This document shows positions 13,892-19,761 of a stretch of DNA of 64,000 nt, one piece after another (positions within the stretch are counted from its first letter, which is position 1; every line of letters begins with the position of its first letter). Made by a program: the position numbers and the translations under genes. Source of the stretch: Psilocybe cubensis (lineage: Eukaryota); contig CM039003.1 in NCBI GenBank assembly GCA_017499595.2, positions 124,001-188,000 on the forward strand, read 5' to 3'. Under the pieces are notes generated by a model, which was given only the letters and a program-made list of their open reading frames with translations, searched no databases and was not told the origin of the DNA.

Positions 13892-15613
13892 ATGAATTCG
13901 ACATCTGCTTTACCCTCACAGGAGTCTCTGAAGACACTGGTCCACACTCTTGAAATAATTCAATTAACTAGAATCCTTAGAGGTGCGCGACCATCCTACC
14001 TTGTTGACTGTCCGCTAGCTTACTGAATCAATCAGTGTCCGCTGTCTGCATTATCATGTACGATTATAGTATGTTGTTGTTGTTGTTTGGTGAATGCAGT
14101 TCCTAATCATTCAAAGTCATCACATTTGACCAAGAGGTAGGCGCAAACATCCTTGATTCCTTCGCTCAGATTAAAATACTGCATACTGACACTATATGAA
14201 TGATCTTAGGTGTCATTCCTATGGGTAAGCAGTCAAAATTCCTGTTTCATTTGATCATTTCATATTTATTTTGCTCAATATGTATGATAGAGTAAACGAC
14301 CCTCACTCATAAAGATACTGTTCTTTTTGGTTAGTGAGATTACGCCTTTCCCTTCAGAAGCGAACAACCGTGAACTGGTAAATGGTAGAATCGCTATTAT
14401 TTTCTCGGGACTTCAATGTTAGCTTTTTCCTTTGCATCTCATGCCATTTACTGATTTATTTTCTAGATATGTCCTTTATGGTAGCTAAAGCATTCTAAGT
14501 AATGAATTTATTCCCCATCGCTGATTAAAAGAATCATCTAGGATTCTTTTTTCCGGCTGTGAATGATAAAGTATGTGTGTTTGCAAAGAAATTGTTGTCG
14601 TTGTTTTCTGACTTCTTGATTCAGTTGTATGTCTTTTTGCACCTAGATGTTGTGAACAAAATTCGCTAACTCTGTTCTATGCTTTTCGTCTCAGTTGTGA
14701 GCCATTTAGTTACAGACCTTCCATGAGTGCAATATCTGACTATATGTCGCAGGCCTAAACTTCATGAGATGGCAGGCATGGACAACATTTCTAGGAACAT
14801 TATTTTCGCAAGGCAAGCATCACCACGTCTACAATGCAGAGAGAATTGATATAGTTTCATATGTTCAGCCATTCTTCAGGTCAGACTATATGCCCTCTAT
14901 TCCAAAAGCCGGAAGCTACTTGCTTTCCTGCTGCCCTTCTACGTTTTATCATCCCTGGGATCTATGTTTGTTGTCCGTCAAACGGTAATACAGCTCTCAG
15001 TCGGTGAGTATTGCTGGTTAACGTTTTCAAATACAATTTCTGATTAATTTCGAGTAAAGATCATAATGCTATGGCAATCCCAATACCAGGAGGACACTTC
15101 TGCGTCGTTGCCCATAGTCCAACATTTATATATGCATTTTGGATACCAGCCTTCGCTTTTGACTGGACGCTCTGCGCACTAGCTATCCGTAGAGGATATT
15201 TGTGTTTCAAAAATTTGAAATCATATGGCCCACAATCCAGCTACACAACGGGTATTCGCATTATGGATATCCTAGTTAGAGACTCTGGTCTTTATTTCAT
15301 TGCGTAAGTCGGAGAGACGCGTCATGACTATTGGGTTATCTCATATTGACCACTTACCAGAATGGCTGTCACATACCTCGTTTGCATGGTTATTTGGATA
15401 GTGGATTTGGTAAGATATCAAAAACTGTGCTTGTGTCGCTGATAGGCCTTCTGTTTCTTGCTAGTGTCGAGTCTGACATTACCTCTCATTTTACAGGAAC
15501 TTTTTGATGCACCAGTAGGGTTCTCAATTGCCATGTCTTCCACTCTTTGCAACCGCCTGGTACTCAGAGTTCACATGGCTTTATCCGAACGTCCTGGTAT
15601 TCCATCGAGTTAA
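13892..15613 (+). CDS. DUF6533 multi-pass (7TM-like) membrane protein, many short exons
   Basis: YDY..TFDQEVSFLW N-terminal motif, ILQVRLYALY, ILVRDSGLYF, CNRLVLRV; includes two 2-nt exons and a GC-AG intron. Confidence 0.85.
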
Positions 15614-18099: not shown

Positions 18100-19761
18100 T
18101 TATGACCATTGGCTCCTCGCTCGCAGGCTATATATGCCTGTTTCCCTGGGGGAGACGGCGGAACGTAAGTTGATTAGTATCCTGCTTCCTAGTATAGCCG
18201 ATACGGCCGTCAGATAGGGGATGGGAGCATCCAGCATTGGCTAGACGAAGCGTCAGCTGAATGACATTTTTTGAGTCAATCTAGTAGAGTATTTTCTCAC
18301 TGGGGGATAGTAGTTCCACCACAGTATACTCATAATATACGCCATCGCAATGCTAAACACACATACGTCATAATCAGCAAATAATATCCTCTTTTCATCA
18401 CCAAAATGGATTTAAACACCTACACAATGAAGTATAGGACAGAGTCCCGCACCATGACCTCCATGAGTGACTTACCCTTAATAAAAATCGAGACATTCGA
18501 ACCAATTTTACTACCCTTCACCGCCTTCCGGATGGCCATTGCACACAGAACGCTCTCAAACAACAGGGGCGGGATCCAAAACTTTGCATAGAAGCGAGTT
18601 AAGCTGCTTTCCTCCGGGGCACAGTACGTCCCGCCAGGGATATTTACTACTTGTACTGCCATGAGATTTTTGTTAGTGACATGGCGGTATTTCTGGATGC
18701 AATGGAGCAGCAAAATTGGTTTGCGTACTCACCTACGACCGAAGTTGTAGCTACAAACCATATTTCAACTGCTGTTGTGGCGGCGAATCCTACTAGCAAT
18801 CCTATGAGAACCATATGATTGAAGGAGTACAGTGCATAAATCCGCATTTGCAGGATCACTACAGGCAGTCAGAATTGCTTGGTTAGCAAATTATTTGAGA
18901 CGCTTCAAAGTTGGAGAGATGTAAGAACACGCCTTGATTAATTACAGGGGTTAACATGATCGTGACCACTTGCCAGAGGGAGAATTGGTTGCCTAGGTGG
19001 GTCAATGGATATTTGTGTAAATTACACAATGATTAAATGGATTCGGAATACTCACAGCTAGGGACAACATCAAGCATTATTTAGCATTCAGCTAATTATT
19101 TCAATCAAGGAGAGTCCTTTCTTACAACTAATAACACATAAATGTTAATATTTACTGAGCGTGAGATAGAAATATACCTGCTGGGACACCTTTAGGGAGA
19201 GATATGCTAACAGGAACCAATCGTAAGCTCATTTAAGGGGTCCAGAACTGTTAGGCGCACCATAAAGCTCTACTCTGCAGAGAAAAAATGAAATTTAAAC
19301 TTTATTTGAGGCTAGGCAGAACGACTTGCAATGCTGTTGCCAAAACGTAGTAACGATTTTGCCATTTAAGTAGCCTGTGAGATAGTCGAAGTATAGAATA
19401 ATCCAACATTCAAACCCACCACGAAGAACATTATTTTTCCAAAGGTAAGTTTTCCTGGCTGTCCGAACACAAGCTCAGATTAGACCTATATTTCATCGAG
19501 AAGGAAAGAGCATAGGTAGCACCCAAAACAAAGATATTTCGTTGTCCAAAGTGATGACTACGAATTTGGAGATCAGAACGTTCACAAAATAGTATATCGA
19601 AAGTGAACTTTACCATAGTCGTAGAGATACCACACGATAGGAGCCACTAGAAGTAATAGTTGAGTGAATGCCTCCCAGACAAGGAATTGGAATGACATAC
19701 ATCGTGCGTATTCAATTTGTTTGATTACACGAAGGAGGCTGATTAATTGTCCTGAATCCAT
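18100..19761 (-). CDS. DUF6533 multi-pass membrane protein, paralog of 13892-15613
   Basis: YLYDY..TLDNEISLFW, ILQMRIYALY, VMVRDSVLYF, SRILINLR; same 14-nt, 29-nt, 2-nt, 2-nt exon series as the paralog. Confidence 0.85.

Follow-up and report, generated by a model that had tools for sequence, protein, structure and literature searches.

Twin 2-nucleotide exons in a Psilocybe cubensis DUF6533 gene as a probable conserved feature of the family

How does a gene encode two adjacent residues of a membrane protein when the DNA at that site holds three introns and, between them, only two pairs of exonic letters? The question is raised by a gene in a 64,000-nucleotide (nt) stretch of Psilocybe cubensis DNA (contig CM039003.1, positions 124,001 to 188,000; the whole stretch is referred to as the window, and positions are counted from its first letter). 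This gene, gene 1, extends over 13892–15613 on the plus strand, and its hand-built model comprises 15 exons and 292 stop-free codons for a predicted seven-helix membrane protein of the DUF6533 family. The DUF6533 region, which occurs in integral membrane proteins, is described as specific to basidiomycetes. The first-pass annotation had proposed that a Phe-Cys pair of gene 1 is contributed by two consecutive exons of 2 nt each. Based on a comparison with a second gene of the window, related metagenome loci and public proteins, we consider it very probable that the twin exons are real, constitutively used and ancient within the basidiomycete DUF6533 family.

The twin exons in gene 1, its paralog and related loci

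At the site in question, exon 8 of gene 1 (29 nt, 14542–14570) ends in phase 0 with GAT AAA. It is followed by intron 8 (54 nt, 14571–14624; GTATGT...TTCAG, with CTGAC near the 3' end), microexon 1 (TT, 14625–14626; positions 1 and 2 of the Phe codon), intron 9 (68 nt, 14627–14694; GTATGT...CTCAG, with CTAAC), microexon 2 (TT, 14695–14696; the last base of the Phe codon and the first of the Cys codon) and intron 10 (56 nt, 14697–14752; GTGAGC...CGCAG, with CTGAC), all on the plus strand. The initial GC of exon 11 (60 nt, 14753–14812) completes the Cys codon TGC, and the exon codes for the beginning of helix 3 with the W-Q-x-W motif of the family. Every coordinate that had been proposed for the three introns and the two TT exons proved exact; each intron has a GT donor, a CTRAC motif and a CAG acceptor, and the GT...AG borders are present on all three. 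Joining exon 8, both dinucleotides and exon 11 (GC CTA...) gives AAA TTT TGC CTA, i.e. K-F-C-L, with both flanking frames kept. The downstream frame is set by a strongly conserved I-L-Q-x-R-x-Y-A-L-Y exon, which can be reached only via a GC-AG intron that keeps the frame (56 nt, 14813–14868, plus strand; GCAAGC...CAG). Omitting the microexons leads to premature stops, and including them yields F-C as in the family consensus.

This consensus was obtained from public proteins. The 80-residue exon of gene 1 (15062–15301) served as a query against a library of 1.84 billion proteins and returned 202 relatives at an expectation value (E) ≤ 0.001, the best 150 of which were available for comparison. 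Alignment of 36 near-full-length relatives with the gene 1 model gave ...L-T-D-x-F-C-x-x-F-x-x-W-Q-G-W-T... at the site, and the F-C pair of the microexons coincides with the F-C of this consensus.

The same layout is found in a paralog on the minus strand of the window, gene 2 (18100–19761; 284–286 codons, 34.7% identical to gene 1). Here, the exon before the first microexon intron ends at 19178 and is followed by a 50-nt intron (19128–19177; GTATAT...TAG, a length that is not a multiple of 3 and a donor without GT at +5), microexon 1 (TT, 19126–19127), a 68-nt intron (19058–19125; GTAAGA...TAG), microexon 2 (CT, 19056–19057) and a 63-nt intron (18993–19055; GTGAGT...TAG). The following 60-nt exon (18933–18992) again begins with GC and precedes a GC-AG intron (18859–18932). 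The resulting TTC TGC encodes Phe-Cys, synonymous with gene 1. A six-frame search of the window and all related loci with a hidden Markov model (HMM) revealed no further paralogs.

Scanning metagenome contigs with a nine-sequence alignment identified 11 related loci, L001–L011. Two of these, L004 and L008, are free of introns (see below), and L009 starts downstream of the site and was excluded from the layout count. Twin 2-nt exons are present at the homologous place in all eight genomic metagenome loci that cover the site and hence, together with genes 1 and 2, in 10 of 10 loci, which form about six groups by flanking sequence. Microexon size, phase and position are the same throughout, and the donor of the first intron directly follows the conserved L-T-D-x motif in every case. 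All 30 introns around the microexons are of the GT...AG type and 48–70 nt long, in line with the lengths of the 20 introns found elsewhere in genes 1 and 2. The first-pass annotation had suggested a survey of DUF6533 genes for this twin pattern, and the survey returned the layout without exception.

The letters of the microexons vary between loci. Microexons 1 and 2 read TT and TT before an exon starting with GT in L001 and L010, TT and CT before GT in L002, TT and AT before GC in L007, CT and AT before GC in L011, CT and TT before GC in both L003 and L005, and AT and TT before GC in L006. All 20 microexons have T as their second base. The first codon is TTT, TTC, TTA, CTA, CTT or ATT (Phe in five loci, Leu in four, Ile in one), and the second is TGC or TGT, i.e. 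Cys in all ten. The variation follows the pattern of a coding sequence, which would not be expected of dinucleotides within introns.

Two contigs provide an uninterrupted view of the site. L004 (1245 nt) and L008 (1327 nt) hold complete DUF6533 reading frames without introns (over HMM positions 6–320 and 8–309, respectively) and with flanking untranslated sequence. The contiguous reading is ...S-F-C-L-N-F-F-R-W-Q-G-W... in L004 and ...N-F-C-L-T-F-F-R-W-Q-G-W... in L008. Because every genomic relative examined is intron-rich, both are most simply explained as environmental fungal transcripts. Neither carries poly(A), and neither has a close genomic match in the locus set, where only short matches at 76–87% identity were found. 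The proposal that the twin exons create an in-frame Phe-Cys is borne out by the family consensus, the paralog, 8 of 8 other genomic loci and these two intron-free contigs. The presence of the pair at all ten loci indicates constitutive use, and the comparison supports the view that both dinucleotides would be included in the final product.

How old the structure is was addressed by comparing introns within each locus. Among 30 such comparisons, one pair gave p < 0.004 and three pairs p of about 0.05, with no consistent similarity. An origin by recent tandem duplication of one intron is therefore rejected, and the lack of any sign of such a duplication suggests that the structure is old. Within the species label, three DNA contigs of another strain (X1–X3) differ from the window by 64–65 letters and 4 gaps over 2301 nt, with no gap inside 14571–14752. 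The substitutions listed, which extend to 14593, include window position 14568, which is A here and G in X1–X3, where the last codon before intron 8 changes from AAA (Lys) to GAA (Glu). A search for sequencing runs that contain the stretch listed no RNA run; two runs presumed to be RNA contain almost nothing of it, and alignment of one of them (X4) gave no match.

Splice signals and rival readings

The loose pattern AG-NN-GT..AG-NN-GT..AG occurs 18 times on both strands of the window and the 11 related loci (225,752 nt), compared to a mean of 8.65 matches in shuffled sequences, and 10 of the 18 matches fall on the homologous codon of the ten DUF6533 loci. Splice matrices were trained on the remaining 20 introns of the two paralogs (48–87 nt, mean 61.5, standard deviation 10.0). 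With the donor matrix, the three claimed donors are the top three (7.3, 6.3 and 6.3) of the 20 GT sites in the 182-nt span.

Several points weigh against the twin exons. If any GT..AG pair with a length of 35 nt or more is accepted as an intron, with a maximum of three introns, 91 paths keep the frame of gene 1 open, including one 178-nt intron and the retention of intron 8. The donor of the former path, GTGTGT at 14575, scores 6.0, nearly equal to the claimed sites, and the three claimed CAG acceptors lie at or under the lowest values of the training set, so that the acceptor matrix is uninformative or adverse for them. Gene 1's own junctions belong to what we infer, as does, purely so, the order of intron removal. 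L004 and L008 would be transcripts solely by virtue of their missing introns. Taken alone, gene 1 does not provably contain the twin exons. Given the 91 open paths and the unhelpful acceptor matrix, the case rests on the comparison between genes rather than on the strength of splice signals.

It is this comparison that separates the twin exons from a single intron of 178 nt (14575–14752), which would use the GT at +5 of the first donor, extend exon 8 by GTAT and encode K-V-C-L without microexons. Such a path is in frame and stop-free, its donor is close to the claimed ones in score, as mentioned above, and public models appear to contain its product. Among the 150 public proteins, 39 cover the site in the HMM alignment; eight of these read V-S or V-R and two V-C, so that 10 of 39 show the expected kind of junction. 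These residues are what GTNA/GC, GTNC/GC and GTNT/GC encode when a GTNNGT donor is used at its +5 GT together with one long intron, which resembles a workaround by gene predictors in want of an open frame at this place. We infer that the V-S, V-R and V-C models are such workarounds; this fits the availability of a GT at +5 of the first donor in six of the ten loci and its absence from the other four (GTATAT, GTATGC, GTAAGA and GTAAGG). In gene 2, GTATAT closes this route. Moreover, a single intron would leave unexplained the AG-NT-GT...AG-NT-GT signals, with the T's needed for Phe, Leu or Ile followed by Cys, that are kept in 10 of 10 loci; the intron-free contigs show F-C and not V-x; and a length of 178 nt exceeds the mean for introns of genes 1 and 2 by 11.6 standard deviations. 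We regard the single long intron as very improbable.

The remaining public models at the site are clean, with one residue directly before Cys, in 11 of the 39 cases (F-C in seven), carry 3 to about 65 inserted residues immediately ahead of Cys in another 11, are ambiguous in three and lack the segment in four. That gene predictors would miss the exons had been anticipated, and the low share of clean models bears this out. Longer public proteins matching the 80-residue exon of gene 1 were not found at E ≤ 1e-10. The insertions bear on a further reading, by which intron 8 is retained as coding sequence, 18 residues precede F-C and the first TT merely ends an 85-nt exon, leaving one 2-nt exon. 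The path is in frame and stop-free and gives a product of 310 residues. Neither the family consensus nor the intron-free contigs contain an 18-residue insert at this place, and the insertions of public models, which fall exactly here, look like retained introns themselves. Among the 10 loci, just 3 have an equivalent intron whose length is divisible by 3, as many as expected by chance; in gene 2, with its 50-nt intron, retention would shift the frame. The segment additionally carries a strong donor, CTGAC and CAG. Retention as coding sequence is considered exceedingly improbable.

A different matter is whether real microexons serve as a switch, one of them being skipped under certain conditions so that a frameshift shuts the receptor off. 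The first-pass annotation had raised this idea, and its premise holds: skipping either microexon results in a frameshift and a stop after residue 157, and skipping both in a stop after residue 91. A regulated microexon has been described in Trichoderma Xlr2 (PMC11121469). The regulatory part gained no support, and conservation in every locus indicates constitutive use; mis-splicing can frameshift any multi-intron gene, and what is conserved is the coding outcome (Phe, Leu or Ile followed by Cys), as constitutive use predicts. We thus think it highly unlikely that the pair acts as a switch.

With the twin exons taken as constitutive, the site would consist of three ordinary short fungal introns of ~50–70 nt in phases 0, 2 and 1, arranged around a Phe-Cys codon pair. 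Each intron has its own donor, branch-like motif and acceptor and could be removed by intron definition, with no need for binding of the exon, and the mature messenger RNA (mRNA) would read ...AAA TTT TGC CTA.... The acceptor AG lies only 2 nt from the next donor, within the stretch that pairs with U1, and neighbouring introns are unlikely to be processed simultaneously. Removal would then proceed stepwise, in a way that resembles recursive splicing but keeps 2 nt per step. A bolder version of this scheme is an obligatorily ordered, ancient and family-wide cascade, in which the inclusion of the putative disulfide cysteine of helix 3 is gated or timed by the step-by-step excision of the three adjoining introns, the arrangement is kept not by inertia, and partial splicing provides a post-transcriptional off-switch. 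This version appears unlikely. If it were true, no gene family would be known to conserve shorter tandem exons, as far as the literature was searched.

Gene architecture and the helix-3 cysteine

The assignment of gene 1 to DUF6533 (PF20151) is indirect. As its DUF6533 domain is split over exons 2–6, the Pfam match was read from the relative P0004, which is 44% identical to the gene 1 model over 286 residues (E 3e-87) and scores 58 bits against a cut-off of 24.1; P0009, L004 and L008 pass the cut-off as well. By way of P0004, gene 1 is assigned to the family.

Structural predictions for the family point in one direction. SNB1, a DUF6533 protein of Coprinopsis cinerea, is predicted to have seven helices and an N-terminus on the outside (PMC10949477). 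For Gpe1, a G protein-coupled receptor (GPCR) of Ustilago maydis, DUF6533 proteins are reported as structural relatives, and a disulfide between Cys108 of transmembrane helix 3 (TM3) and Cys178 of extracellular loop 2 (ECL2) is predicted (PMC13652807). An AlphaFold2 model of the L004 protein (predicted local distance difference test, pLDDT, 80.5) contains seven long helices, with a beta hairpin separating the fourth from the fifth. The cysteine that corresponds to the microexons is Cys81 at the start of helix 3 in this model, and an invariant Cys157 is located in the hairpin. All 49 matches listed by Foldseek for the model against the PDB are GPCRs, at weak similarity (template modelling score 0.38–0.48, E about 1e-4 to 1e-3). 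According to these models, DUF6533 proteins form a family of predicted seven-helix, GPCR-like proteins in which the microexon Cys lies where helix 3 begins on the outer side. The earlier remark that this Cys is placed like an extracellular disulfide Cys of seven-helix proteins is reasonable, its position fitting both the L004 model and the predicted TM3–ECL2 bond of Gpe1. It should be noted that the agreement concerns the positions of Cys81 and Cys157 and that the bond itself is putative.

The exons of the gene 1 model measure, in order, 91, 33, 20, 15, 39, 29, 14, 29, 2, 2, 60, 135, 244, 49 and 117 nt and are separated by introns of 48–87 nt. Further very short exons on the plus strand are those of 20 nt (14117–14136), 15 nt (14210–14224) and 14 nt (14467–14480), and 11 exons share the first 111 of the 292 codons. 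Gene 2 has nearly the same sizes (33, 35, 39, 29, 14, 29, 2, 2, 60...); the intron between the 20- and 15-nt exons of gene 1 is absent, and a single 35-nt exon is found instead.

Genes 1 and 2 together contain three GC-AG introns, at 14813–14868 (plus strand), 18859–18932 and 19275–19329 (both minus strand). Two of the GC donors, GCAAGC in gene 1 and GCGTGT in gene 2, occupy one shared position before the I-L-Q-x-R-x-Y-A-L-Y exon, and gene 2 has an additional GC donor, GCAAGT, 3' of the N-R-Y-Y exon. Upstream of that exon, in the region 19359–19430 (minus strand), the gene 2 intron has CAA at the position of the AG acceptor of gene 1. An in-frame alternative with a weak GTTCTT donor (19429) and a CACAG acceptor (19375) would add two residues; the oddity is due to either a shifted junction or a damaged site.

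The exon downstream of microexon 2 varies among the metagenome loci. In L001, L002, L007 and L011, its last residue is that of the gene 1 exon, and a GT donor follows. The exon has only 24 nt in L003 (3623–3646), L005 (3598–3621) and L006 (3630–3653) because of an extra intron (donor GTAATT) after the W-Q or R-Q codons, and these loci have three very short exons in succession (2, 2 and 24 nt). Conversely, L010 holds C...W-Q-G-W and I-L-Q...Y-A-L-Y in one exon (2213–2472), the GC-AG intron that separates the two segments in genes 1 and 2 being absent.

Significance and comparison with known systems

The site offers a natural test case for how the spliceosome handles exons too short to be bound, here with two 2-nt exons adjoining, and tractable fungi allow splicing order, intron definition and the minimal length of an exon to be tested directly. 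It also explains a systematic annotation error, namely the V-S, V-R and V-C readings, insertions and gaps that public models show where the conserved helix-3 Cys belongs. Such models corrupt both the alignments and the structural modelling of receptors that are now being connected with development (SNB1) and peptide sensing (Gpe1). As the finding extends from one gene to a family-wide rule, models can be repaired in bulk by looking for L-T-D-x, the exons NT and NT, and an exon starting with GY, followed by W-Q-G-W. With regard to the proteins themselves, the seven-helix prediction and outside N-terminus of SNB1 and Gpe1 (PMC10949477, PMC13652807) would be shared by gene 1, whose microexon Cys would be located at the equivalent start of helix 3.

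The closest precedent at the level of splicing comes from the same fungal class. A long-read annotation of Coprinopsis cinerea (PMC12230235) reports 13 exons of 1 nt, 57 of 2 nt (in 50 genes) and 27 of 3 nt, which implies that exons of the size seen in gene 1 are spliced in Agaricomycetes and that some genes hold more than one 2-nt exon. According to the same work, these microexons are overlooked by automatic annotators, and leaving them out creates stop codons. Its preprint (10.1101/2024.05.10.593147) states that microexons are enriched in two DUF families. The main text of the C. cinerea study names neither DUF6533 nor an adjacent pair and holds nothing on conservation across species, and the twin pair may already figure in its supplementary tables of microexon genes. 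The literature searched, with supplements outside the search, gave no description of adjacent 2-nt exons, of family-wide conservation of such a pair or of DUF6533 gene structure. As far as this search reaches, exons of 1–3 nt are already known and the conserved adjacent 2-nt pair is apparently undescribed.

Two systems of consecutive splicing are similar in part. At the ratchet points of recursive splicing (PMC8605326, PMC5126111), acceptor and donor nearly overlap as well, so that introns have to be removed step by step, the donor acting either after the upstream splicing event or independently of it. Ratchet points, however, are zero-length exons in very long introns, whereas the twin exons would keep 2 nt per step between introns of about 50–70 nt. 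The site is not a ratchet point, the two bases between AG and GT staying in the mRNA by the present model. Fungal stwintrons (PMC6616335, PMC8469720) are likewise complex intervening sequences that are removed by consecutive splicing reactions. There, an internal intron interrupts a splice signal of the outer intron, whereas the three introns of gene 1 stand side by side with complete signals each. A stwintron is rejected on the grounds that all three introns have uninterrupted signals and that removal of 14571–14752 as one unit leads to an immediate stop.

Exons of 1 nt have been described in Arabidopsis APC11 (PMC4674806), in plant APC11 and VPS55 (PMC8831610) and in Fusarium CYP621A (PMC12940212), and adjacent microexons of 5 and 12 nt have been validated in rice (PMC8831610). 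As reported, the 1-nt exons share with the proposed twin exons that they are constitutive, lie between canonical introns, are needed for both frame and motif, are conserved among orthologs and are absent from reference annotations. They differ in being single, whereas the DUF6533 genes would have two 2-nt exons in a row, with three introns in about 150–200 nt, across paralogs that are 35% identical.

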